IMG/VR virus record: IMGVR_UViG_2778261454_000009
Span: 1 to 12,110 of that record
Strand: one strand, 5' to 3'
Origin: a virus
Taxonomy: Duplodnaviria > Heunggongvirae > Uroviricota > Caudoviricetes
Length of the DNA stretch: 12,110 bases
Shown here: piece by piece, positions 1 to 12,110 of the stretch
Layout: each line of letters begins with the position of its first letter
How positions within the stretch are numbered: the first letter of the stretch is position 1
Translations under genes and position numbers: made by a program
The notes under the pieces: model-generated
Seen by the model: only the letters and a program-made list of their open reading frames with translations
Told to the model about the DNA's origin: nothing
Database searches by the model: none

Positions 1-1194
1 ATGATCACCGACACAAAGCTCAGGAAGGCGCTCGGCAAGAAAAGAGATGATATCGAGATTATTTCTGATTCGCACGGGCTCAACGCCAGAATCAGCCAGG
101 CCGGAAAAATATCATTTTTCTATCGGTATCGCTGGGCCGGTAAAGCGGTAAAACTCAATGTTGGTGATTATCCTGCAATGAGTATCACCCAGGCAAGAGA
201 GCGTCGCCAACAATTCAGAAACTGGTTAACTGAGGGACTGGATCCGCGAGAGCAGGTGAAGCTGGATAAGCAGACCCGACAGGAAGCGATGTCCGTTGCC
301 GAAGCGTTCAATTACTGGATTGAAAGGCACTGTATCGCTAACGGGCTAGTTAAAGTCGATTACTATCGCCAGGTGTTTGAGAAACATATCGCCGAACCGA
401 TGAAGAATGTCAAAGTCGATAACACAGCGAAAATGCACTGGATCAACGTCTTCGATTCTATAGAAAGCAGGGTGATGGCTCATTACATGCTTTCGCTGTG
501 CAAACGGGCGTTTAGGTTCTGCGTTAACAGAAGTGTGATCGCCTCAAACCCACTCGAGGGATTACTGCCATCTGATGTCGGGCAAAAGCCTAAAAAGAGA
601 ACTCGCAGGATGGACGATGACGATCTGCGCAAAATCTATCAGTGGTTGAAAAGCCATATGTCGATAGAGTCCGTTTTCCTGGTGAAATTTATTATGCTTA
701 CCGGATGCCGTACGGCTGAGATTCGACTTAGTGAGAGATCATGGTTTCGATTGGATGATAATGAGTGGGTCGTGCCTGCGGGCAGTTATAAAACTCGGGT
801 ACATATTAGAAGGGGACTCTCAGACGCCGCCGTTAACCTGGTCAGAAATCACCTCAAGAAAATAAACACCAATCACCTGGTGACTTCACAACGTAAAATT
901 GATGGCGGGATCAAAGATTCGCCCGTTCATTCACCTGTGGCATCCAATTACGCCCGTTCTATTTGGAATGGAACAGGTATGGCAGAGTGGTCGCTTCATG
1001 ATATGAGGCGGACGATAGCCACAAATCTCTCTGAGTTAGGTTGCCCGCCGCACGTAATTGAAAAGCTGCTCGGGCATCAGATGGTGGGGGTTATGGCGCA
1101 TTACAACCTTCATGACTATATCGATGATCAGAAACACTGGCTCCGCGTTTGGCAGAGCCATCTTGAAGAGATCATCGGAGAGCCCTTCAGTTAA
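1..1194 (+). CDS. int: Tyrosine site-specific integrase with N-terminal arm-type DNA-binding domain
   Basis: 397-aa ORF from ATG at 1. N-terminal arm-binding-like motif (FFYRYRW...[13 protein letters not shown]). C-terminal catalytic boxes [14 protein letters not shown] and LGHQ...MAHYNLHDY give the R-H-R-Y signature. The window starts at the start codon, so promoter and att site are not visible and the true start could lie upstream. Confidence 0.9.
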
Positions 1195-1388
1195 TTTATC
1201 TTCTTTTTATCCTCCCACTCTTTGATTGACTCAGAGCGCCAGCGGTTAGGGTTGCCGGGCCAGTCAGGGGGTGGGAACGGGCATACGAAGCCCCGAGGCA
1301 TTGTGTCTGCACTTTGCCATGACCAAAGGGTTTTGCGTGAAATTTTGTAGCGACTGGTCAGGTCTGACGTTACCAAAATATCATCCAT
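1191..1388 (-). CDS. AlpA-family HTH protein, putative excisionase/regulator (Rac ydaQ position)
   Basis: HTH-like core [20 protein letters not shown] and C-terminal [14 protein letters not shown] resemble the phage AlpA/Xis family (from memory). The ORF track extends to 1433 but that codon is TTG with a poor RBS. The in-frame ATG at 1388 is preceded by GGAGAG at about 4 nt. Its stop overlaps the int stop tail-to-tail. Confidence 0.6.
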
Positions 1389-1429
1389 AGCTCTCTCCAG
1401 TTGCCCGTTCGGGCCATTCAAAATCTTTT

Positions 1430-1672
1430 TCAACCAACCTGCCCGGGCAGGGAGCGGAGACGGCGCATGCCGGTCATCGCTGTGGCCACGTAGCTCGCCT
1501 TTCGGTTCACCACCTCCACCCAGACTTTCACGCCTTCAACCTTCACCGTATAAGTCTCTTTCATCTTGCTTCGCCCATAGTCGCCATATGTTTGCAAGTG
1601 AGCTTCCAGCGCGATGTCGCATGCTTGGCGAGCTAAAGGTGATTGCTTACTTCCTCGATTGATCAGTCGCAT
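1430..1672 (-). CDS. Hypothetical small protein (ydaC/ralR position of Rac-like prophages)
   Basis: 80-aa ORF with ATG at 1672 preceded by AAGGAGA, lying in the leftward operon between the recT-like and xis-like genes. No recognisable motif. Confidence 0.5.
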   Translation of the reverse strand: MRLINRGSKQSPLARQACDIALEAHLQTYGDYGRSKMKETYTVKVEGVKVWVEVVNRKASYVATAMTGMRRLRSLPGQVG

Positions 1673-1710
1673 ATAATCTCCTTGAGGGAGGGTTACCCCT
1701 CCCGGTCTCG

Positions 1711-2829
1711 TCAGGCCACGTATTCCGGTTTCATATCCGCCAGGGTGATGCTGAATTGATCGTGCAGTTCATCGCCTAAGTGACGCTTTGAAGATGCAAG
1801 CATGCGCTCGGCTTCAGCGAACCGTTCGGATGCATGCGGCTCGTCGGGCTGGGGCAGGGATTTAATAGCCTCCTCAACCTTGTTGCGTGCATCCACTAGG
1901 TAATAACGCTTTACGGCTTTGTTTTTCAGCTCGGTGAATAGTGCGGATCCCAGCGTAGCTTTCGCCGTTTCAATGTCGGCACGCAGCGATTTGGCGCTAT
2001 CCACGTCCTGAGCAGATTCGATGCGTTCGCGGAAATCATCGGCAAGAGAGTCGACATTTACCGACGATTCCTGTGCGCTTTGCGTGGTTGTGACGGTGTC
2101 ACCTGAGATATCAGCCAGGCTAACGCGTTGCGGCGTTGGGTTGATCTCTTTTTCTGTGCGCTGTTCAATCTCATCAGGGGTGTACACACCAAGAACAACT
2201 GCAGGGCAATACAGGCGCGCCCAGTATTTGAGTGCCAGATAAGCGATCTGCTGTTTCGGGTTTGATACCCAAAGTGGAGAATTACGTGTGATTACGCTGG
2301 AGAGGAAAACAGGCTCTCCCCAGGTGATATCACTTTCACCGCGAATAACGGCACCTACCCGTACCGACAGTCCTTGTTCATCAGCACTTTCCCAACCGCG
2401 TACCATTTCTTTCTTGTCGTACGTCCCGCCACCTTTCGCAGGCTTTTTAACGGTTATCTCGCGGCTGCTGGCACATTTCGACCAGTCGCCCTCGTACTCA
2501 TAGTGAAAGCGGCCAACGATGGCGTTTGAGCTGGAGATCACCGCATTAACCAGTTGCGCTTCGTATCCCAGGACACCGTTAACCAGGTGCGTCTTTTGCG
2601 CCACGGCGTAAGGGTTCATACCCCACTGCATCGCCTGCATGATGATGGCCATGCAGTCTGCCGGATTGCCGCGGAGGTGCTCAGGCACCGTTACGGCTGC
2701 CTGTGCCATCAACCCGGCGACAGACTGAAGCTGGGTTAAAGCCTGCACGTTGAAAATGGCATTGCTGGCTGAGATCGTGTTTGGAGTCTGCTGTTCAGCG
2801 GTTACGATATTCGTGTTTTCCATCATCAT
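1711..2829 (-). CDS. recT: RecT/Red-beta superfamily single-strand annealing protein
   Basis: 372-aa ORF immediately downstream of recE in the same orientation (6-bp gap). Region ...DCMAIIMQAMQWGMNPYAVAQ...LGYEAQLVNAVI resembles the conserved Bet/RecT core (compare lambda Bet ALLIVANQYGLNPWTKEIYAF). AAGGGG RBS before a triple ATG. Family assigned from motif plus recE-recT synteny. Confidence 0.7.
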   Translation of the reverse strand: MMMENTNIVTAEQQTPNTISASNAIFNVQALTQLQSVAGLMAQAAVTVPEHLRGNPADCMAIIMQAMQWGMNPYAVAQKTHLVNGVLGYEAQLVNAVISSSNAIVGRFHYEYEGDWSKCASSREITVKKPAKGGGTYDKKEMVRGWESADEQGLSVRVGAVIRGESDITWGEPVFLSSVITRNSPLWVSNPKQQIAYLALKYWARLYCPAVVLGVYTPDEIEQRTEKEINPTPQRVSLADISGDTVTTTQSAQESSVNVDSLADDFRERIESAQDVDSAKSLRADIETAKATLGSALFTELKNKAVKRYYLVDARNKVEEAIKSLPQPDEPHASERFAEAERMLASSKRHLGDELHDQFSITLADMKPEYVA

Positions 2830-2834
2830 TCCCC

Positions 2835-5800
2835 TTATGCCTGAGTACGCAGCGCTTCAAGGCGGCGCAGGTCGAAGTCGTTCAGTTCGTCGGTGTAGTC
2901 AGCAGTGATTGGCGCTGGCCATTCACCTGTGTCGAATCCGGTTGCGATATTGCGCATCGCTTTGCGGTACTCGAGCATACCCAGCTCCAGTAGTTCAGCG
3001 GATGCCTCGATGATGGCGATCCAGTGGTAGTTCTCGTCTTTGTTGACGAAAATCCAGAAGAACTGGTCCAATGCTGCGGTCTCGCAATACATGGCGGCGC
3101 TCAGGTGGTAATCACGGTCGATGATTTCCCGGTGCAGTTTGGCGCGCAAACCTTCCTGTTTAATGTTCCACATGCTGATGGTTTTCAGGTCGGCACCGAT
3201 GCGAACGCCGTCCAGGTCGATCTCCAGATCAGGACGAACGCGGACTTCCAGACCGGTTTCGTCGTCAAAGCCAAAGTAGCTCACCTCAACAGCGCGGCTC
3301 GGATGCTGAAGCAGCATCCCGGCGGTTGGGTGTGCCAGTAATGCCGACTGAATAGCCAGCGCGGTGCTCAGTTGCTGACGGGTGACCAGCACTTTCCCTT
3401 GCGGATTCTCACGCCAGGCATCCAGCAGTTCGTCGGCAACGACGGCGTCCGGATTAACAGACTTCACGGTCTGGATCAGATCCGCTTTGGTACCGGACAC
3501 TTTCAGTGGTTGGGGCTTCTGCGCCTCCTGTGCAACCAAGTCAGGATTGATGATTGCCAGTTGCTCGAGTAACGCATCACGGCTACCGCTGGTTTTCACC
3601 TGTGCTGGCAGAGTGGCGTTGTATTCCTTGATGCAGGCTTTCATCGCCGCTGCGGTCTGCTTCTGGTCCGCTTCGATACGCTGATACTCTTCAGGAAGCG
3701 ACATATAGCTCTGACCAGTTTCCTCGACTGAACCACCCAGCGGCACCTGTGCTGGCAGAGTGGCGTTGTATTCTTCGAGCAAGGCTTTGATCTCATCTGC
3801 ACTCAGCAGCGCTTGCAGACCTGCGTTGTAATCATCGATAAACGCGCGGATCGTTGCCGTCGTGGTGAATGCGCCTTCCGGAATTACCGGTTCAACGCTG
3901 AATTCGGCATCCAGCAGTTCGGGCTGCAGCGCCAGCGCATGCACCAGGTTTCCCATGTCGAGCACCGGTGAGCGTTCTTTGACGATTGTCTTGGCGACGT
4001 GGCGCGCATTAAAGTACATCAGGCTAACTCGGGCATCTTTCACCTGCGTGGAGCTGATACCGTTGGCGGCGTGGTAAACCTCGTTCGGCAAACCTTCATA
4101 ACGACCTGGCTCGAAGTAAGCGGGATACACGGCTACCGGTTCGTCAGTTTGTACTTCTGGTTCGTTTTGTGCCGCAACTGGCTCAATTTGGTTTACAGAA
4201 TCGCTATTTTGGGCGACAGAATCCGCATTCTGGTTTACATCGGCTTGCTGGCTGGTATGTGACTCTTCACCAGTTTCCAGACTGCTTTCGCTTGACTGCA
4301 CTTCATCACCAGCATGTTTTTCATCACTGACAGTTTCTTCCATCTGCACATGGCTGGTGGTGTCCTCATTAACTGGTGAACGGTCATCTGTTTGTGTTTG
4401 TTGATCGCCCATCAGGCCATCAATGGAGAATACGCCGTTGCCCATGTTGGCGATTTGTGGCTGTTTAGCATCTGTTTTCTGCTCTGCAGCGACCTGCTCA
4501 TTAACCTCATTTTCCCAGCTGACGTCCGGCGCATGACCAGCATCAGCCAGCGTTTCTTCTGAGGGGTTTGAGTGGTCATTTTCGGTTAGATTGGCATTGA
4601 TATATGCCCGCAACCGCCCAGGAAAGTTAACCAATTCGGATGATGTGCCGCGGATGAGTGCAAAGATGGCTGCGCGTGAATAGTCCAGGATGCCAGCGGT
4701 TTTGCGCAGCGCCTCAGACCATTCGCTGAACGGACTTTCTTTCTTGCTGACAATCTCTTTAGCGCGACGGTAGACCCCACCAGGTATGTCGTAGATATTG
4801 AAATCCATTGGCAAGGTGGCCAGCGCAATTTCAACATCCAAAGTGTCCAGTGTGTGGACATAGTCGGTATTACGATCGGTCTTATTTCCACCGCCAGCAT
4901 TGGTTTTGACGTCAGTACGTTGAATCTGCGCAACGCGGTTACCTTTCTGCCATTCCTTGGCCAGCAGGCCACGGTCGATGTAATCAGTGTTGAACCACAC
5001 AGTCAGGAACTGGATAACTGTTGCCAGCTCCGGTTTTTTACCGTCGACAGGGAAGACTTTCTTAACAGCATTCACGACTTTATGAATATCGTGCTCAATG
5101 GCTTTTTTGAATGCTTCCACATTCTCAGCAGCCAGCAGCAGGTTCTGGATGTACGTGTCATCAGTGTCCATCTCAAGGCGGACAATCTCGTTTTTCTGCC
5201 CAGCGTCGATGTGATAGAGATATTCACCATCACCGATGAACTGAGCCAGTACGCGCTGACGGAATGGCAGGGTGGCTACGACGATCAGGTTCGGCTGATC
5301 TGGCTGCTGAGATTGTTCTTCGGGACCGACTTCATCACCAACGCTGGTGGTTTCAGTTTTGAGCAGAGGAAACTTTCCACTGCGCCAGTCTTCAACCAGT
5401 TGATTGCGATCACCTGCTTCTGCGTTCACCCAGTCAGACATGAAAGCAGCGATCACTTCAGGTTCATGCTCTTCACCCTGTTCGAAGATGTCTTTAATCG
5501 CCTGAATCATTTTCCACTCAGCATTAAGACTGAGTTCGCCAACTTCAGGAACATCATTTTTAACCTGCAGCAAGTTCTGGAGATAGGTATTGCTTTCGTC
5601 CAGTGACATTTCGCTGGCAGCCAACTGCTGCTCTTTAGTGACGTGGGTTTGGTATTTATCGTTCATCAGATGGACGGCAAAGCGGACCGCTGGAGTACGG
5701 TTTTCAACCGGGACAATTTCGGACGCAGTCGCATCTTCAACGATTACGGTCGGAGTAGGTGTGTAGGGGGCGTCAACGGAACCAGTAGACACACCAGCGG

Positions 5801-6074
5801 CTTTTGGCAGCCAGGTGCGCCCATCGTCCTGAAGCTCGTAGCGATCACACCAGGTAAAATCAACTTCACCTTCTTTCGGCAGGCCGTCGACAACTGGGAA
5901 ATCAGTGCGAATCGGTTTGGCGTAGTCCTTACCCCGACCTGTTTCGATACCTGCATCTTCCAGCGCAACATCCAGCATCAGATTGGCGCGAGCCTCGGTT
6001 TTAGCAGTGAACCAGACCACTGCATCTTGCTTTCCGGATTTCTGAGTGGCTTTAACCACATTAAAGAATTCCAT
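2835..6074 (-). CDS. recE: Exodeoxyribonuclease VIII (RecE-like), enlarged form with acidic low-complexity linker
   Basis: 1079-aa ORF. N-terminal TDFPVVDGLPKEGEVDFTWCDRYEL and central KVFPVDGK...WFNTDYIDRGLLAKEWQKGNRVAQIQRT...NAGGGNKTDR...LDYSRA blocks match my recollection of E. coli Rac RecE ([51 protein letters not shown]...NAGGGNLTDR). GAGGAT RBS before ATG at 6074. Confidence 0.85.
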   Translation of the reverse strand: MEFFNVVKATQKSGKQDAVVWFTAKTEARANLMLDVALEDAGIETGRGKDYAKPIRTDFPVVDGLPKEGEVDFTWCDRYELQDDGRTWLPKAAGVSTGSVDAPYTPTPTVIVEDATASEIVPVENRTPAVRFAVHLMNDKYQTHVTKEQQLAASEMSLDESNTYLQNLLQVKNDVPEVGELSLNAEWKMIQAIKDIFEQGEEHEPEVIAAFMSDWVNAEAGDRNQLVEDWRSGKFPLLKTETTSVGDEVGPEEQSQQPDQPNLIVVATLPFRQRVLAQFIGDGEYLYHIDAGQKNEIVRLEMDTDDTYIQNLLLAAENVEAFKKAIEHDIHKVVNAVKKVFPVDGKKPELATVIQFLTVWFNTDYIDRGLLAKEWQKGNRVAQIQRTDVKTNAGGGNKTDRNTDYVHTLDTLDVEIALATLPMDFNIYDIPGGVYRRAKEIVSKKESPFSEWSEALRKTAGILDYSRAAIFALIRGTSSELVNFPGRLRAYINANLTENDHSNPSEETLADAGHAPDVSWENEVNEQVAAEQKTDAKQPQIANMGNGVFSIDGLMGDQQTQTDDRSPVNEDTTSHVQMEETVSDEKHAGDEVQSSESSLETGEESHTSQQADVNQNADSVAQNSDSVNQIEPVAAQNEPEVQTDEPVAVYPAYFEPGRYEGLPNEVYHAANGISSTQVKDARVSLMYFNARHVAKTIVKERSPVLDMGNLVHALALQPELLDAEFSVEPVIPEGAFTTTATIRAFIDDYNAGLQALLSADEIKALLEEYNATLPAQVPLGGSVEETGQSYMSLPEEYQRIEADQKQTAAAMKACIKEYNATLPAQVKTSGSRDALLEQLAIINPDLVAQEAQKPQPLKVSGTKADLIQTVKSVNPDAVVADELLDAWRENPQGKVLVTRQQLSTALAIQSALLAHPTAGMLLQHPSRAVEVSYFGFDDETGLEVRVRPDLEIDLDGVRIGADLKTISMWNIKQEGLRAKLHREIIDRDYHLSAAMYCETAALDQFFWIFVNKDENYHWIAIIEASAELLELGMLEYRKAMRNIATGFDTGEWPAPITADYTDELNDFDLRRLEALRTQA

Positions 6075-6213
6075 GTGAGATCCTCATTTTTGGGTGTTAG
6101 AATCCCCGGACCATTGATAGCGCCCATTGGGTTAACTTTGGTTTTAATGTTGTTTCCGGTGTAACTTTGGTCGGTACCACCGGACGTAGATCCCGCCTTG
6201 CGCGGGTTTTACG

Positions 6214-6375
6214 TTAGCCTTCGTGAGCCATCTGGTCGTGCGAAGCGCAACGTTTGGAGCAATACTCTTTTTCTTTGCGCGCCAGCTGTGAGCCGTTGCG
6301 ATAGAGAAGGGTGCTCTTGATTACTTCCTCCGTTTTAACCGGCTTGCCGCAATATCCGCATTTCTTGTCTAACAT
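6214..6375 (-). CDS. Small zinc-ribbon protein (YdaE-like), 53 aa, absent from the ORF track
   Basis: Hand translation of the minus strand gives MLDKKCGYCGKPVKTEEVIKSTLLYRNGSQLARKEKEYCSKRCASHDQMAHEG, with a CxxC ... CxxxC cysteine pattern. GGAGGA lies 4 nt upstream of the ATG. It sits between the kil-position gene and recE, where Rac has ydaE. Confidence 0.6.
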   Translation of the reverse strand: MLDKKCGYCGKPVKTEEVIKSTLLYRNGSQLARKEKEYCSKRCASHDQMAHEG

Positions 6376-6386
6376 GACATCCTCCG

Positions 6387-6593
6387 CTAGTGGCTGAGTC
6401 CATGCCCCAGACCGTTCAGATAAACTTCAACCAGCAAATCCTTGGTGTAAGTCATTTCTACGCCGCGATGCAGATACAAACGTCCGCGAGCGTTAGCTGA
6501 TGCCGTCCAGGTTGAGTCTTTGTGTTTGACGAGCATCCCCGGCTGAACTGCGCCGCGGTTTACTGTCTGTGTACCGTAGTGCTGATGAACCAT
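6387..6593 (-). CDS. Small protein, first gene of the leftward early operon (KilR position by synteny)
   Basis: The ORF track's 116-aa version starts at a TTG (6737) with no usable RBS. The in-frame ATG at 6593 (MVHQHYGTQTVNRG...) is preceded by GGAGAA at about 6 nt and gives a 68-aa product. Function is inferred from position only. Confidence 0.55.
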   Translation of the reverse strand: MVHQHYGTQTVNRGAVQPGMLVKHKDSTWTASANARGRLYLHRGVEMTYTKDLLVEVYLNGLGHGLSH

Positions 6594-6845
6594 GATGTTC
6601 TCCAGTTTTTCTGAGTGAACTTCGCTGGTGGTGCCGCGGCGCTGATCTTCACGGTTGAGCGTTTTAACTCTGCAATTCACCACCGCGAAGCTCACTCTGT
6701 GCTTTGCCCTTGTCGCCAGGCTGGCGGAACGTTTCAAACCTACTGCGCGTTAATCTCACCACCTCATTCCGGTCTTCGTATGCCCCGGACGGCTACTTCG
6801 TGGGCTCCATGCCTGGGTGGTTCGTGGTGCGTCTTGGTGATTGCA

Positions 6846-6874
6846 TATTAAGCCTGAGACTTAAATCATGTCAA
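6846..6874 (-). promoter_or_regulatory. PL-like sigma70 promoter for the leftward operon
   Basis: Minus strand reads TTGACA (6874..6869), a 17-nt spacer, then TTAATA (6851..6846). The spacer and -10 contain the operator palindrome also found at the rightward promoter. Confidence 0.5.
6848..6864. promoter_or_regulatory. Putative repressor operator, 17-bp near-palindrome (OL-like)
   Basis: TTAAGCCTGAGACTTAA is the exact reverse complement of 9062-9078 and is itself a 14/17 palindrome. An additional half-site TCAGGCTTAATT lies at 6902-6913. Confidence 0.45.
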
Positions 6875-7015
6875 GCTCCAGGCGAAATGTGATTGTAAGT
6901 TTCAGGCTTAATTGTGATGTTCACCGAATTGCAGGCAAAAAAAATCCCGACGCTAAGGTCGAGATCGGGGACTTCGTGGCTGGGTGTTGGCGGCTGAGAT
7001 GGTGGGTGAGGGTGT

Positions 7016-7045
7016 AAAAAACCCGGCGCTGTGGCCGGGTTTTTT
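7016..7045. terminator. Bidirectional rho-independent terminator
   Basis: AAAAAA-CCCGGC-gctgtg-GCCGGG-TTTTTT: a 6-7 bp GC stem with a 6-nt loop, flanked by an A-run and a T-run. It starts 2 nt after the stop of the 34-aa ORF and separates the AT-rich unit from the PL-like promoter. Confidence 0.65.
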
Positions 7046-7047
7046 CA

Positions 7048-7152
7048 TTACTGCTGGTTAAATCCTTTCGGCGAGTGCTGCTGTTCTTTATTACCAAATT
7101 TTTGATTTACAATGATTTTATAAGCGTTATTGAGAGCTTGCTTTATAGACAT
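7048..7152 (-). CDS. Small ORF (34 aa) co-transcribed downstream of the HslV-like gene
   Basis: Hand translation MSIKQALNNAYKIIVNQKFGNKEQQHSPKGFNQQ. AAGGAG lies 6 nt upstream of the ATG at 7152, 17 nt after the upstream gene's stop. It ends 2 nt before the terminator and is AT-rich like its neighbour. Short ORFs are prone to false calls. Confidence 0.35.
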   Translation of the reverse strand: MSIKQALNNAYKIIVNQKFGNKEQQHSPKGFNQQ

Positions 7153-7169
7153 TAATATCTCCTTATGTG

Positions 7170-8474
7170 TTATTGACGATTAAAGTAGTTAGAGTTTAGC
7201 TCTTTAGGGAAGTAGTGTTTACGATTTACCCAAACAAATCCATCAACTTTTGATATCACAGCGACATCAACAGGCCCACCGACAGTTTCATAATCATGTG
7301 ATACTTTTCTTTTGAATGCAGTGATGTTCACTAATGATTCGGCCATATACGCAAGATCTGCCTTCCCAAGTGATTGCAACATCGATATCATTTTATTTGT
7401 ATGGTTATTAACAATATAGCTTTCAAGTTTAGTATCGTGATCTTGTAAAAGTACGTTTTTGAGTTCCTCAATTTCACTGGAGAAGTGATTGGCTAGTACT
7501 CCATTGTTCATTGCAGGGAAAATATTGCTAGAAACATAATGATTAAGCCGATCAAAAACTTCCTCTGTAAGAGTTCTGTTAAAATTAATGATGTTAGGGT
7601 TGCACCCATCAATGAAAGTTACTACTTCATCTTCTTGAGCAAATGGTATAACAAACCCCATATTGGTTACCTCATTATGGGATTTATTATCAATATTATG
7701 GATCATCAATTTGTTTTTAAAAATGCCGTAGATATGAAGAGTGCAAATGGAAGGGTAATATTCTTCCTCTCCATAACCTGTTATAACAATCCCTGAATAT
7801 GTACGACTAGCATGGACTTTGAAAATTAAATAAGTGGAATATAATATGACTTTTTCCATAAGCTCTTGCTGTATATTTTCACAGTTATCAAGAACAATAA
7901 TTGATGAAATGTATGGCGATATTAAATCTTGTATATATGCTAAAGCATCATTAAACTCTTCTGTATCAAACCCTTCGAAAAAGAGATTATTCCTTAAGAT
8001 TCCTATCTCTAAATCAAAGGCTTGCTTAACTATGTTTTGAAAAATAACATTGTCGAGTTCAACGGCGGGGTTCATTGTTAAATAGTTTACTACATTATTA
8101 TCATTAATGTATCTCATCAAACCTTTGAGGTTATCAACAACAAGGTTTATAACGCAAGCCTCTCTCATTTCATTTGTTATAAGGTCTGAGTTACCATTGA
8201 TGAATTTTACAAAGTCATTAACATATTCTTTAATGGTAGGGAAACTAGTTTTCCCCAATTGTTTTCTATAGGATTTAATTATAAGTTCCCACGGTGCGCC
8301 ACCCAGTGTCGCATTATTATAAATCATGATCCCCACGGGATGGTGTTTAGATAGTTCGAATAGTTTTTCCGCACTATTATTTATTTTTACTAATCTATTA
8401 TGCTCTGTGGTGACTGCAGAGTCAGCAGCAAGGGCGATTCCAGTATTATTTATTACAACAATCTCAGCTGTCAT
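7170..8474 (-). CDS. HslV/20S-proteasome-beta-like N-terminal-nucleophile hydrolase homolog with a large insertion
   Basis: 434-aa product from ATG at 8474 (the track's longer form from 8573 has no RBS). The ORF is about 33% GC. N-terminus MTAEIVVINNTGIALAADSAVT...NNSAEKLFEL parallels HslV [24 protein letters not shown]...KKVRRL and 20S beta [21 protein letters not shown]...KNCSKIHFI, with Thr directly after Met, Asp at 17 and Lys near 33-36. Mid-protein IVITGYGEEEYYPSICTLHIYG and C-terminal DYETVGGPVDVAVISKVDGFVWV resemble the corresponding T1-family strands. The GSG loop is not recognisable. Comparison is from memory, not a search. Confidence 0.6.
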   Translation of the reverse strand: MTAEIVVINNTGIALAADSAVTTEHNRLVKINNSAEKLFELSKHHPVGIMIYNNATLGGAPWELIIKSYRKQLGKTSFPTIKEYVNDFVKFINGNSDLITNEMREACVINLVVDNLKGLMRYINDNNVVNYLTMNPAVELDNVIFQNIVKQAFDLEIGILRNNLFFEGFDTEEFNDALAYIQDLISPYISSIIVLDNCENIQQELMEKVILYSTYLIFKVHASRTYSGIVITGYGEEEYYPSICTLHIYGIFKNKLMIHNIDNKSHNEVTNMGFVIPFAQEDEVVTFIDGCNPNIINFNRTLTEEVFDRLNHYVSSNIFPAMNNGVLANHFSSEIEELKNVLLQDHDTKLESYIVNNHTNKMISMLQSLGKADLAYMAESLVNITAFKRKVSHDYETVGGPVDVAVISKVDGFVWVNRKHYFPKELNSNYFNRQ

Positions 8475-8502
8475 TGCAAAACATCCCGTGTAGTAGTGAT
8501 AA

Positions 8503-8531
8503 ATATTAATTAAATTGATAGTTTTTTTCAA
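8503..8531 (-). promoter_or_regulatory. Candidate sigma70 promoter for the HslV-like unit
   Basis: Minus strand reads TTGAAA (8531..8526), a 17-nt spacer, then TAATAT (8508..8503), about 30 nt upstream of the ATG at 8474. Confidence 0.45.
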
Positions 8532-8615
8532 TCTAACATAAATGGCGGAATCACCCCCCAGTAAAGACATCATTGTCTCATGGGAACTAAAAATTCAGGA
8601 CAAACCTAAAGCGAT

Positions 8616-9002
8616 TCAGTCCCCCTGCGAGCGAATCCGCCCCTTCATGTACTTCTCATACAGCTCATCCAGTTCCTTAAGACGTATCGAAAAGATGCGG
8701 AGCATGTTCTGTTGCTCTTCTTCTGGAAGCTGGCGGTAGAGCTCAAGCAGGCGCTGTTCGTCCGGCTTAAGTCCGTCCTTCTCGCCGACATCCTCACCGA
8801 GTAACCAAGGCACAGACACGCCAGCTGCGTCAGCGACAGCGAGAGCTGATTTCTTGCTGATCACGCCTTTTTTAAACCAGCCGTTCACAGACTGCGGGGT
8901 TACCCCAGCAACCCTGGCCATATCGGATTTGGTCATACCGCGCCCGTTCAGCTCTGAAAGGCGTTCGACAAGTATCGGATTAAGTACGGTTTTCTCTTTC
9001 AT
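8616..9002 (-). CDS. CI-like immunity repressor, XRE-family HTH transcriptional regulator
   Basis: 128-aa ORF with a canonical HTH (MTKSDMARVAGVTPQSVNGWFKKG) and a helical C-terminal region. It is divergent from the Cro-like gene, with shared operators in the intergenic region. No obvious S24 peptidase domain, as in RacR/DicA-type repressors. Confidence 0.8.
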   Translation of the reverse strand: MKEKTVLNPILVERLSELNGRGMTKSDMARVAGVTPQSVNGWFKKGVISKKSALAVADAAGVSVPWLLGEDVGEKDGLKPDEQRLLELYRQLPEEEQQNMLRIFSIRLKELDELYEKYMKGRIRSQGD

Positions 9003-9050
9003 GGTTAGAAGAATAAGCCTTTTGCTTAAACTTGAAAATTCGCCTCAGGC

Positions 9051-9080
9051 TTGACAATAAATTAAGTCTCAGGCTTAATT
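9051..9080 (+). promoter_or_regulatory. PR-like sigma70 promoter for the rightward operon
   Basis: TTGACA (9051-9056), a 17-19 nt spacer, then a TTAATT/TAATTT -10-like element (9075-9081), followed by GGAG and the ATG at 9107. This is a mirror-image copy of the PL-like cassette. Confidence 0.5.
9062..9078. promoter_or_regulatory. Putative repressor operator, 17-bp near-palindrome (OR-like)
   Basis: TTAAGTCTCAGGCTTAA lies between the -35 and -10 of the PR-like promoter and is the exact reverse complement of 6848-6864. A related half-site CTCAGGCTTG at 9044-9053 overlaps the -35. Confidence 0.45.
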
Positions 9081-9106
9081 TGATTGTATTCAAATCGGAG
9101 ACAACG

Positions 9107-9325
9107 ATGAACGGGTTAACGAAAGCCATTAAGTCCGCTGGCACTGCAACAAATCTCGCAACCATGCTGGGCATCAAGCCGATGTCGGTCAGCCGCTGGA
9201 AAAACCGGTACCAGGGCATGGTGCCTGCTGATCGGGTCCTTCAAATCTACGCGGCTACCGGCGTAACTCCACACGAGCTGCGCCCTGATCTCTATCCAAA
9301 CCCAAGTGACGGTTTACCAAAGTAA
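9107..9325 (+). CDS. Cro/YdaS-like small HTH regulator
   Basis: 72-aa product from ATG at 9107 with GGAG 6 nt upstream (the track's longer ORF from 9032 lacks an RBS). HTH ATMLGIKPMSVSRWKNR and the HELRPD motif are typical of the YdaS family. It is divergent from the repressor. Confidence 0.7.
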   Translation: MNGLTKAIKSAGTATNLATMLGIKPMSVSRWKNRYQGMVPADRVLQIYAATGVTPHELRPDLYPNPSDGLPK

Positions 9326-9336
9326 GGAATGTAACT

Positions 9337-9876
9337 ATGCAATCACTTACGTATCAACAGAGTAACGGGTTCATTTCAGCAGCGCTGATAAATCGCGCTC
9401 AACCAAAACCGGGCGTCAGTTGTGGTGCCCTCCGTGATGCTGTTCGCGCCTGGTCAGCAGTAGCCGGGCAGGACGTTGTAACGGCCCTGATCGTTGAAGA
9501 GTGGCACCGGATAGGTGGCGAAGGTATCGACTTTCCGGCAGATCACAGCCGTGCCCGGCAGAAGCTGTTCCGCTTCCTGGATAACCATTTCAACAGCGAA
9601 CGGTACCGCGAGAACGTCCGCCAGCTGACGCCGGCAATCCTCGCTGTCCTGCCGATTGAATACCGCAATCGTCTGCTACCAGAAGACAACGTAATGGCTC
9701 GTCTGGCAAGGCTGGAGAAGGAAACCAGCGAAGCGAAGATTGCTGTCGCAATGGATGCGCCACGTCATCAGAAGCTGAAAGAGTTGAGCGAGGGGATCGT
9801 GGAGATGTATCGCGTTGACCCTGGGTTAACCGGTCCGTTGATGGAAATGGTGCAGATTATGCTGGGGGCTATATGA
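9337..9876 (+). CDS. YdaT-like protein (cII-like regulator / putative toxin YdaT family)
   Basis: 179-aa ORF 11 nt after the Cro-like gene, with AAGGAA RBS. The motif LTPAILAVLPIEYRNRL resembles the conserved PAILAILP segment I recall from Rac YdaT. Gene order matches ydaS-ydaT. Confidence 0.6.
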   Translation: MQSLTYQQSNGFISAALINRAQPKPGVSCGALRDAVRAWSAVAGQDVVTALIVEEWHRIGGEGIDFPADHSRARQKLFRFLDNHFNSERYRENVRQLTPAILAVLPIEYRNRLLPEDNVMARLARLEKETSEAKIAVAMDAPRHQKLKELSEGIVEMYRVDPGLTGPLMEMVQIMLGAI

Positions 9877-9960
9877 CCGGTTCAAAAATGGCGAAAGCCG
9901 CGGTGCTCGAACACCAACGGCTTTCAGGTGCAAAAACAGTGCGTAATTGCGGAGAACAGT

Positions 9961-10869
9961 ATGTCAAACACCGCTGAAATAATCAATTTCCCAAATAAAA
10001 CCGAACAACCGGGAGGTCGTATGGCCGACCTGTCGAACGGGTATACCAAGGTCGCTAACGAGATCCAACAGCTTAAGCCTCGCCTGAGACTGTCAGGCCG
10101 GGAATGGCAATGTTTTGAGGCGGTGATCTGGCTTACCTACGGCTGGAACAAGAAACAGGACCGCGTGACAAATACGGTTATTGCCGAGCTTACGGGCCTG
10201 AGCGATACGCATGTATCGGACGCGCTTAAGTCTCTCGCAGAACGCAAAATCATCTTTTCACAGAAGCAGGGCATGATGAAAATCGTCGGTGTAAACACTG
10301 ACCTTTCAGCATGGATTTTAGACAAACCGGAAACGGGAAGAAAATTCCCGAAAACGGGAAAATCCTTCCCGAAATCAGGAATAACCTTCCCGAAAACGGT
10401 AGACACCCAATACAAGAACAAGAACAGTATTAAAAGATCTTCGTCCGAGAATTCTGACGAATCCTCTGACGCACGTCTGAAGAAATTTTTATCAACTCAT
10501 CCTGAAGCTGCGGTCTACACACCATCCGGTGCGAAGTGGGGCTCTGCTGAAGACCTCGAGACAGCTAAGTGGATTTCCTCCAGGGTGAAGCTGATTAACC
10601 CAACCTGCAAAGCCCCGGACATGACCTCCTGGTCTAACACTGTTCGCCTGATGCGCCAGATAGACAACCGGTCGCACCAGGACATCTGCGCGCTGTATGA
10701 CTGGGCTAGCAAACACCACTTCTGGCAGACCAACATCCTGAGTCCCGAAAGCCTGCGTAAGCAGTGGGACAAGCTGACAATGCAGCGTAACGCCGGAGGT
10801 GAGCAGCGCGCTGTCAAGCCAGATCTGGACTTCAACAACACTGACTGGGCCTATGGGGTGATCCGATGA
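9961..10869 (+). CDS. Replication initiator, lambda O-like
   Basis: Start at ATG 9961 (GGAG 6 nt upstream; the track's start at 9928 is an upstream extension). MSNTAEIINF... resembles lambda O MTNTAKILNF, and ...LTYGWNKKQDRVT... matches O ...KTYGWNKPMDRIT. Iteron repeats are embedded in the linker-coding region. The stop overlaps the next start (ATGA). Confidence 0.8.
   Translation: MSNTAEIINFPNKTEQPGGRMADLSNGYTKVANEIQQLKPRLRLSGREWQCFEAVIWLTYGWNKKQDRVTNTVIAELTGLSDTHVSDALKSLAERKIIFSQKQGMMKIVGVNTDLSAWILDKPETGRKFPKTGKSFPKSGITFPKTVDTQYKNKNSIKRSSSENSDESSDARLKKFLSTHPEAAVYTPSGAKWGSAEDLETAKWISSRVKLINPTCKAPDMTSWSNTVRLMRQIDNRSHQDICALYDWASKHHFWQTNILSPESLRKQWDKLTMQRNAGGEQRAVKPDLDFNNTDWAYGVIR
10325..10403. 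repeat. Origin iterons: four ~21-bp direct repeats, each an internal inverted repeat, inside the O-like gene
   Basis: CCGGAAACGGGAA / TTCCCGAAAACGGGAA / TTCCCGAAATCAGGAA / TTCCCGAAAACGGTAG spaced at 21-22 bp, followed by a more AT-rich stretch (10405-10450). They encode the FPKTG peptide repeats. Architecture resembles lambda ori (TCCCTCAAAACGAGGGA x4). Confidence 0.6.
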
Positions 10870-11444
10870 AATCTCTTGCAGAGCAGATGCGTAACCACGA
10901 CCGCGAGCAGATGAGCCGCATGGCCCATAACCTGCCAGAGCAGTACCAGGAGTGCGCGCCGGTCGAGCAGGTGGCGCAGGTATTCAACAAGCTGTTCAAC
11001 GAGCTGCGCGCCGCGTTCCCGGCCAGCATGGCGAACTTCCGCACCCAGGAAGACCTGAACGAATTCCGCCGTCAGTGGCTGCTGGCGTTTCAGGAGAACG
11101 GGATCCACACCATGGCTCAGGTCGATGCCGGCATGCGCATTGCCCGCCGCCAGGAGCGCCCATTCCTGCCGTCGCCGGGCCAGTTCGTCGCCTGGTGCAA
11201 GCAGAGCGGCGGCGCGCTGGGCGTCAACGTTGACCAGGTGATCGCCGAATACTGGGACTGGCGTAACCGCTCGTTCGAATTCATCTCCAGCGAGCAATTT
11301 CCATGGTCGCAGCCGGTCATGTACCACATTTGCGTAGAATTGCGCCACCGCAGCACCGAGCGCCAGTTAACGCATGGTGAACTGGCACGCGAGGCAGGCG
11401 ATCTGCTGGACATGTGGGAAAGGCGCGTCACCGAGGGTATCTGA
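10866..11444 (+). CDS. Replication protein, lambda P-like helicase loader (short form)
   Basis: MKSLAEQMRNHDREQMSRMAHNLPEQY... closely parallels lambda P MKNIAAQMVNFDREQMRRIANNMPEQY..., and ...RRQERPFLPSPGQFVAWC... is shared. At 192 aa it is about 40 aa shorter at the C-terminus than lambda P (233 aa, from memory). Confidence 0.8.
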   Translation: MKSLAEQMRNHDREQMSRMAHNLPEQYQECAPVEQVAQVFNKLFNELRAAFPASMANFRTQEDLNEFRRQWLLAFQENGIHTMAQVDAGMRIARRQERPFLPSPGQFVAWCKQSGGALGVNVDQVIAEYWDWRNRSFEFISSEQFPWSQPVMYHICVELRHRSTERQLTHGELAREAGDLLDMWERRVTEGI

Positions 11445-11476
11445 TTATCTCCTGTGCCCACATTCCGTTTTGCCGC

Positions 11477-11502
11477 TTCTCCCAAACCAACCTTTTTTAT
11501 AA
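11477..11502. promoter_or_regulatory. Candidate hix/gix-like crossover site for the adjacent serine invertase
   Basis: TTCTCCCAAACC-AA-CCTTTTTTATAA has a 12-2-12 layout with an AA core and about 20/26 identity to hixL (TTCTTGAAAACCAAGGTTTTTGATAA) as I recall it. It lies 60 bp upstream of the invertase ATG. No partner site is visible in the window. Confidence 0.4.
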
Positions 11503-11561
11503 CCATCAAAAATCTGGTGATGCTTCGCCGTTTCTCCTGTTTTCATAACAGGAGAAATCCC

Positions 11562-12110
11562 ATGATTTACGGTTATGCCCGAGTATCAACAAACCACCAG
11601 GACACTGAATTGCAACTAACGGCGCTCAAGTCAGCGGGTTGTGAGAAAATTTTTGAAGAGCATGCCAGCGGGAGGAAATCGAATCGGCCGGTTCTAAAAC
11701 GGCTGATCGCCACTATGCAGCTGGGGGATGAACTGGTGGTCTGGAAGCTGGACAGGATAGGCCGCAACGTTCTGCATGCGCTGTTGATGTTCCAGCAGTT
11801 ACAGGAAAAGGGTATCAACTTCCGCAGTATTACCGATGGCGTGGATCTCAAAACAGCCAGCGGCCGCTATAACTTTCGTAACATCCTTTCCGCAACACAA
11901 TATGAATCTGATCTTAATAGCGAACGTACCTTAGCAGGGCTGGCCGTAGCCAGGGCAAAAGGGCGAGTTGGTGGTCGCAGGCCTAAGTTCACGGATGAGC
12001 AATGGCGGGAAATGGGGGAGCGGATGGCAACCGGTGAATCACGACAAAGCGTATCAAAAACGTATGGAGTAGGGCTCTCAACTCTGTATAAAAAGTTTCC
12101 AGCTAGCTGA
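11562..12110 (+). CDS. Serine DNA invertase, Hin/Gin/Pin/Cin family
   Basis: Start at ATG 11562 (GGAG 7 nt upstream; the track's start at 11454 is an upstream extension). MIYGYARVSTNHQDTELQ... has the catalytic-Ser N-terminus; LVVWKLDRIGRN and INFRSITDG match the resolvase core; the C-terminal HTH ends ...LSTLYKKFPAS (compare Hin ...LSTLYKKHPA). The window ends at its stop codon. Confidence 0.85.
   Translation: MIYGYARVSTNHQDTELQLTALKSAGCEKIFEEHASGRKSNRPVLKRLIATMQLGDELVVWKLDRIGRNVLHALLMFQQLQEKGINFRSITDGVDLKTASGRYNFRNILSATQYESDLNSERTLAGLAVARAKGRVGGRRPKFTDEQWREMGERMATGESRQSVSKTYGVGLSTLYKKFPAS

Follow-up and report, generated by a model that had tools for sequence, protein, structure and literature searches.

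An orphaned Pin/Gin-type crossover site in a decaying Escherichia coli prophage, very likely stripped of its partner by a 29.8-kb deletion

The window analysed here, a stretch of 12,110 nucleotides that makes up positions 1 to 12,110 of the viral record IMGVR_UViG_2778261454_000009, is a whole prophage remnant. Its source is the 189-kb Escherichia coli contig NODD01000008.1 (GCA_002518125.1). The remnant retains int/xis, recET, the immunity region, gene O, a truncated gene P, and an invertase gene with a partnerless crossover site. The features at its right-hand end are as follows, with the basis for each in brackets.

10866..11444, + strand: truncated replication gene P, phi80 gene 14 type (Pfam Phage_lambda_P; identity to HK225)
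11436..11439, no strand: deletion junction (megablast break point, alignment, blastn against the LR-33 prophage)
11440..11476, - strand: invertible-segment stub, the first codons (...GEAAKRNVGTGDNQIP) of an alternative tail-fibre C-terminal cassette
11477..11502, + strand: invertase-proximal crossover site, TTCTCCCAAACC AA CCTTTTTTATAA (half-site matrix, comparison with pix and gix); segment-side half 11477-11488, AA core 11489-11490, outer half 11491-11502
11530..11558, + strand: hairpin with a 12-bp perfect stem, GUUUCUCCUGUU / AACAGGAGAAAU, overlapping the invertase Shine-Dalgarno sequence AGGAG (RNA fold)
11562..12110, + strand: intact serine DNA invertase of 182 aa with Ser9 (Pfam Resolvase and HTH_7; phrog_125, DNA invertase)

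Read directly, positions 11477-11502 form a 26-bp site with two 12-bp inverted halves around a 2-bp AA core, which is the 12-2-12 layout that the original prediction had described. The dyad symmetry between the two halves is weak (6/12). The pix sites used for comparison were taken straight from the E. coli MG1655 genome and gix from the Mu genome, while the hix and cix sequences are those that we assume for these sites. The segment-side half and the core together (TTCTCCCAAACCAA) match both e14 pix sites of MG1655 exactly. Over the full 26 positions, identity is 22/26 to the pinE-proximal pix of e14 (TTCTCCCAAACC AA CGTTTATGAAAA), 20/26 to the distal pix (TTCTCCCAAACC AA GGTTTTCGAGAG), 17/26 to Mu gix (TTCCTGTAAACC GA GGTTTTGGATAA), and 20/26 to hixL, which we take to be TTCTTGAAAACC AA GGTTTTTGATAA. 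A half-site weight matrix made from the other family sites gives the site 22.3 bits, a score that 300 dinucleotide shuffles of the 20.6-kb source locus never reached (maximum 20.8, mean 10.7). The outer half-site is degenerate (6.7 bits), as it also is in the e14 proximal site. A gene for a small serine DNA invertase lies next to the site, which has the position and polarity usual in the family: from its centre to the invertase ATG is 72 bp, against 67 bp for both Mu gin and e14 pinE, and its polarity relative to the gene is that of the gin- and pinE-proximal sites. Because of the matrix score, the matches to pix and gix, the polarity and the spacing, we conclude that this is a genuine Hin/Gin/Cin/Pin-family crossover site and that the resemblance is not due to chance. 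The family likeness and the customary placement beside the invertase, both proposed earlier, are thus borne out, and the alignment to known sites is far from poor.

The identical 26-mer serves as the invertase-proximal site of many E. coli prophages, and in a set of 80 related phage contigs at least 25 have it in the same place 5' of the invertase. This survey covered IMG/VR contigs carrying invertase relatives at 79-99% identity, and in most of them the centre of the site is 72-73 bp from the ATG (71-87 bp overall). Across the 80 contigs the outer half is constant with the invertase gene, and the inner half changes from one segment to another. As a side observation, a 60-bp stretch at 11436-11495, consisting of the cassette stub and the segment-side half, matches unannotated stretches at 92-98% in otherwise unrelated phages of E. 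coli, Klebsiella and Salmonella. Crossover-region modules are common to various tail-fibre genes, and these matches fit that pattern.

The invertase gene starts sixty bases 3' of the site, and the window ends exactly at its stop codon. Its product has the domains expected of the DNA-invertase family, a Resolvase domain (Pfam, 6e-38) with the catalytic Ser9 and a C-terminal HTH (HTH_7, 1.5e-9), and it is close to known invertases. BLASTP gives 55% identity to PinE of e14, and the closest solved structure is that of Mu Gin (PDB 3uj3, E = 6e-56, ungapped). Compared with PinE it belongs to a distinct lineage, carried beside the attP of phages that use the phi80 attachment site. Ser9 is invariant across 37 distinct invertase relatives, and the protein is 100% identical to the UPEC85 copy. 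Synonymous diversity in the 37 distinct genes shows no clear dip over codons 8-30, the stretch in which an enhancer embedded in the gene would be expected, and PADLOC returned no defence-system match for the invertase. Upstream of the gene, the fold of 11503-11580 has a z-score of -4.45, with 0/200 shuffles folding as well. The hairpin is kept in relatives, with one compensatory change of U-A to C-G in mEp237. Judged from the predicted fold, it probably buries the Shine-Dalgarno sequence and so would damp invertase translation. A scan of 11300-11700 found no sigma-70-like promoter overlapping the site on the + strand, leaving an operator role unsupported.

Control by Fis may also differ in this lineage. 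Hin, Gin, Cin and Pin depend on a recombinational enhancer, a pair of Fis sites within the 5' part of the invertase gene. In the enhancer register set by what we take to be the Fis-site positions of Hin and Gin, the proximal Fis-like 15-mer (GTATCAACAAACCAC) retains its G/C ends, and neither end is kept in the stretch that lines up with the distal site. A search for a pair of Fis motifs at ~48-bp spacing, which also covered e14, Mu and HK225, found none in the window over the first 330 bp after the site, and the same scan missed the e14 pairs too. The N-terminal part of helix E (residues 104-120) is strongly unlike that of Gin (NFRNILSATQYESDLN vs FFHVMGALAEMERELI in Gin). Hin contacts Fis through Q151, R154 and L155 (PMC3798978), whereas the corresponding positions in the window invertase are E150, E153 and R154, and are the same in the copies of E. 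coli LR-33 and TD225-C4.

To the left of the site, two sequences of different origin are joined. Positions 10800-11439 match the replication genes O/P of HK225 at 100% and phi80 genes 15/14 at 99%, while 11436-12110 match the mEp237 invertase region at 96% and many E. coli prophages at 99-100% (megablast). The switch point is at 11436-11439, where the four bases GGTA are all that the P gene and the invertible segment have in common. Residues 1-191 of P are those of HK225 P (229 aa), and they are followed by one foreign Ile codon and a stop, both from the tail-fibre stub. This stub fills the 37-41 bp between the junction and the 26-mer, and its minus-strand translation reads ...GLGEAAKRNVGTGDNQIP. 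It is 99-100% identical to E. coli prophages that have an annotated tail-fibre or gp53-like gene there, and its residues 2-29 match phrog_2557, a virion structural protein. The original prediction had placed the site against the 3' end of a P-like gene. A P-type gene does lie on that side, but it is truncated (191 of 229 codons) and the stub intervenes; what lies immediately left of the site, at 11440-11476, is therefore the stub of an invertible tail-fibre cassette and not, as had been stated, the replication gene. The unusual context was rightly noted, the site being fused to a truncated P by way of this stub, and the suggestion that the locus is the remnant of a rearrangement was also right: 29.8 kb were deleted from inside the prophage, and the junction shows 4 bp of microhomology. 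The rearrangement also created a 130-codon antisense ORF (11117-11509, - strand) that opens with the stub start (MVIKKVGLGEAAKRNVGTGDNQIP) and continues as the antisense of gene P; it is almost certainly meaningless, although it could be mis-annotated as a gene.

No junction-spanning match was found by megablast among phage records or in 5426 complete E. coli genomes, and the absence from those genomes is what a chimeric contig, with the P-invertase junction an assembly artefact, would predict. We regard this as very improbable: the junction lies well inside a 189-kb contig, the junction-specific P protein is recorded in two contigs/samples (and in those only), and the break holds no repeat that could mislead an assembler, the two sides having only 4 bp in common. 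Moreover, the complete genome of E. coli TD225-C4 carries an independent internal deletion in a prophage of the same family.

The nature of the missing DNA becomes clear from E. coli LR-33, which holds a full prophage of ~42 kb between kch and yciI. This prophage is colinear with the window through int, DUF4060, recT, recE, ydaE, kil, a 466-aa ORF, the repressor, a cro-like gene, a ydaT-like gene, O and P. Beyond P it continues with the nin region, Q and lysis genes, terminase, head, tail and baseplate genes, and then tail fibre, tfa, tfa', fibre' and invertase. The e14 switch and the relatives of the window share this last layout (tail fibre / tfa / tfa' / fibre' / invertase). A blastn comparison with the window as query, in which LR-33 prophage coordinates are those of the reverse complement of locus L009, gave three matching blocks.

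Window 1-4365, LR-33 prophage 7525-11889: 94.6% identity
Window 5801-11439, LR-33 prophage 12992-18632: 98.4% identity
Window 11436-12110, LR-33 prophage 48456-49130: 99.3% identity

Window position 11439 corresponds to 18632 and window position 11436 to 48456, and 29,823 bp are absent relative to LR-33. LR-33 has the same 26-mer and, 1.8 kb upstream in the tail-fibre gene, an inverted partner, TTACCACAAACC TT GGTTTGGGAGAA. Two other regions of the remnant deserve a remark. The middle (4366-5800) of the window's recE (2835-6074, - strand) has no blastn match in LR-33, whose recE is shorter; it has the look of a mosaic insertion or replacement within the central, non-catalytic part of this 1079-aa RecE-like gene. 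Between the kil/ydaE region and the repressor, the 466-aa ORF (7170-8573, - strand) is conserved in LR-33 and TD225-C4. It has neither a Pfam nor a PADLOC match, and hits only phrog_5990 (unknown function). Lambdoid prophages often have exclusion genes at this position.

Since the window stops exactly at the invertase stop codon, with nothing visible further right, the invertase could in principle lie inside the invertible segment, as in Hin, with the partner site to the right. The source contig makes this extremely unlikely. Past the stop codon there are 120 bp and then a phi80-type att core (annotated in mEp237), which marks attR. The conserved genes yciI, tonB, yciA, yciB, yciC, ompW, yciE, yciF, yciG, trpA and trpB follow in standard order, and this flank is 99.96% identical to LR-33 over 7 kb. 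Within the 9.3 kb searched on the right, the best matrix score is 8.4 bits with a GC core, which is below the shuffle mean of 10.7. Wherever a partner is present among the 80 relatives, it is always on the tail-fibre side, 5' of the invertase. The earlier idea of a Hin-like segment with its partner beyond position 12110 is thus contradicted by the contig.

The search on both sides gave the same answer. With the weight matrix, no second site above noise appears in 11.4 kb to the left and 9.3 kb to the right, so that an inverted, core-matched partner is absent from this range. The next-best score in the window and contig flank is 9.7 bits with a TA core, a value reached by 62% of shuffles, whereas the same matrix picks out two sites in each of e14, Mu and LR-33, at 22-30 bits. 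A search for the partner with a 14-mer, allowing up to 3 mismatches, found 3 occurrences against 2.1 expected, which is chance level. With no partner here, a partner in relatives, and that partner lost with the 29.8-kb deletion, the site belongs to the family by descent only and is not a working switch.

In relatives, the same 26-mer does invert. The predicted inverted isomer of LR-33 was built from its two cores, and the 700-bp novel junction was searched in E. coli genomes. TD225-C4 holds this junction (100% coverage, 99.6% identity), adjoining the same invertase and yciI, and a local comparison of LR-33 with TD225-C4 places the strand switch inside the common half-site and core. Both isomers at the same 26-mer therefore exist in nature, in the relatives LR-33 and TD225-C4. 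The TD225-C4 prophage belongs to the same family and occupies the same kch/yciI site. It has a deletion of its own, independent and different, at 1438-2405 of its locus (L008, NZ_CP035860.1), where a ydaT-like pseudogene is fused to a fragment of a baseplate gene. This prophage family has decayed repeatedly in E. coli.

A core-matched partner lies 1.2-2.6 kb upstream in at least 43 of the 80 contigs, and about 7-14 of the 80 have orphan sites, including those of the plaque-forming phages mEp237 and HK225. These two phages share with the window the invertase lineage (180-181 of 182 residues identical), the upstream site and the att site, and they too have no core-matched partner. They differ in having retained their tail-fibre genes, whereas the window has lost its entire late region and has its site fused to a shortened P. 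Gix-like sequences (CTCGC.CAAACC TC GGTTTAGG...) in the tail-fibre genes of the orphan-invertase genomes mEp237 (L001, 4043-4068) and UPEC85 (L002, 5839-5864) were considered as partners and rejected, since their core is TC, not TT, and cannot pair with an AA-core site. Their core is like that of Mu gixL, and they are probably the vestige of an older, different switch.

Of the better-known systems, e14 pix/pinE shares with the site the segment-side half and core (TTCTCCCAAACC AA), the polarity and a near-equal spacing from the invertase start codon (72 bp here, 67 bp in e14). The site differs in its outer half (CCTTTTTTATAA vs CGTTTATGAAAA in e14), and the window has neither partner nor invertible segment. 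With Mu gix/Gin the site has in common the 26-bp 12-2-12 architecture, an invertase outside the segment, and a position where the constant part of a tail-fibre gene meets the variable part; the identity is lower (17/26), the core is AA rather than GA, and again there is no partner in the window. The hix/Hin and cix/Cin systems are comparable to gix/Gin.

Taken together, we consider it very likely that the window carries an orphaned Pin/Gin-type crossover site whose partner and invertible segment were removed by the 29.8-kb deletion in a decaying E. coli prophage. The site would have been the invertase-proximal half of a tail-fibre inversion switch in a prophage of ~42 kb integrated between kch and yciI, at the phi80 attachment site. 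In relatives that are still intact, the invertase would synapse this site with the inverted partner (TT core, same strand) inside the tail-fibre gene, flipping a segment of 1.2-2.6 kb that carries alternative fibre C-termini and assembly chaperones. We infer that the deletion was illegitimate and mediated by the GGTA microhomology, running for 29.8 kb from codon 191 of P to a point 37-41 bp short of the site. It would have taken away the nin region, Q, the lysis, head and tail genes, the partner site and nearly all of the invertible segment, leaving on the right the site, the invertase gene with its hairpin, and attR. As a single site is left in this region of the chromosome, inversion in cis is impossible; the site is thus a molecular fossil, presumably inactive now.

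The end of the deletion is close to the crossover site, and the invertase itself might have made the deletion by recombining its site with a pseudo-site in P. Such quasi-site recombination has reportedly been described for this invertase family, in the literature on Cin. A site-specific event would, however, join exactly at the core, and the junction is ~50 bp away from 11489-11490 with 37-41 bp of segment DNA left between; we therefore conclude that the deletion was not made by the invertase, and give this origin very little credence. The breakpoint in P also lacks any half-site resemblance, and the event would need the site and pseudo-site in direct geometry. Recombination in direct orientation is disfavoured by wild-type invertases.

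The module may not be functionally dead in trans, as the invertase gene is undamaged and other genomes have identical copies. It could even be kept because it is functional, the invertase acting in trans on the Pin-type segments of other prophages, or binding its lone site for self-regulation, or both. We see this as a possibility, if a somewhat unlikely one. The ORF is intact with Ser9 and 100% identical to the UPEC85 copy, the segment-side half and core are those of the e14 pix sites, and the plaque-forming mEp237 and HK225 likewise carry the invertase with an orphan site. Pin genes of cryptic prophages (pinQ/pinR type) persist without a working switch of their own, and inversion in trans of the e14 P segment has been reported for PinQ, which belongs to the cryptic prophage Qin (PMC12529663). 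On the other hand, no sigma-70-like promoter lies over the site on the + strand, and the rarity of the junction (2 samples) points to a recent accident rather than to a selected state. The E150, E153 and R154 residues of copies that do invert raise the question of whether this lineage uses Fis canonically. Since inversion occurs in relatives that lack the three Fis-contact residues of Hin, an invertase that is naturally Fis-independent or differently controlled can be envisaged, and, if so, recombination between the lone site and others elsewhere could still take place. The stronger proposal, in which the orphan invertase is kept as a trans-acting switch for other prophages' Pin-type segments in a lineage that is perhaps Fis-independent or differently controlled, appears improbable to us.

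The orphan site is a member of a well-known family, left over from ordinary prophage decay. Through a single deletion, probably mediated by microhomology, that stripped off the entire late region, this remnant is an example of how cryptic prophages decay. Where a prophage edge carries only a lone invertase and its site, annotation as a phase-variation switch is unwarranted. Beyond annotation the finding has little significance, and the intact invertase could merit attention only if tail-fibre segments of other prophages prove to be its targets in trans, or if the lineage works without the canonical Fis contacts.
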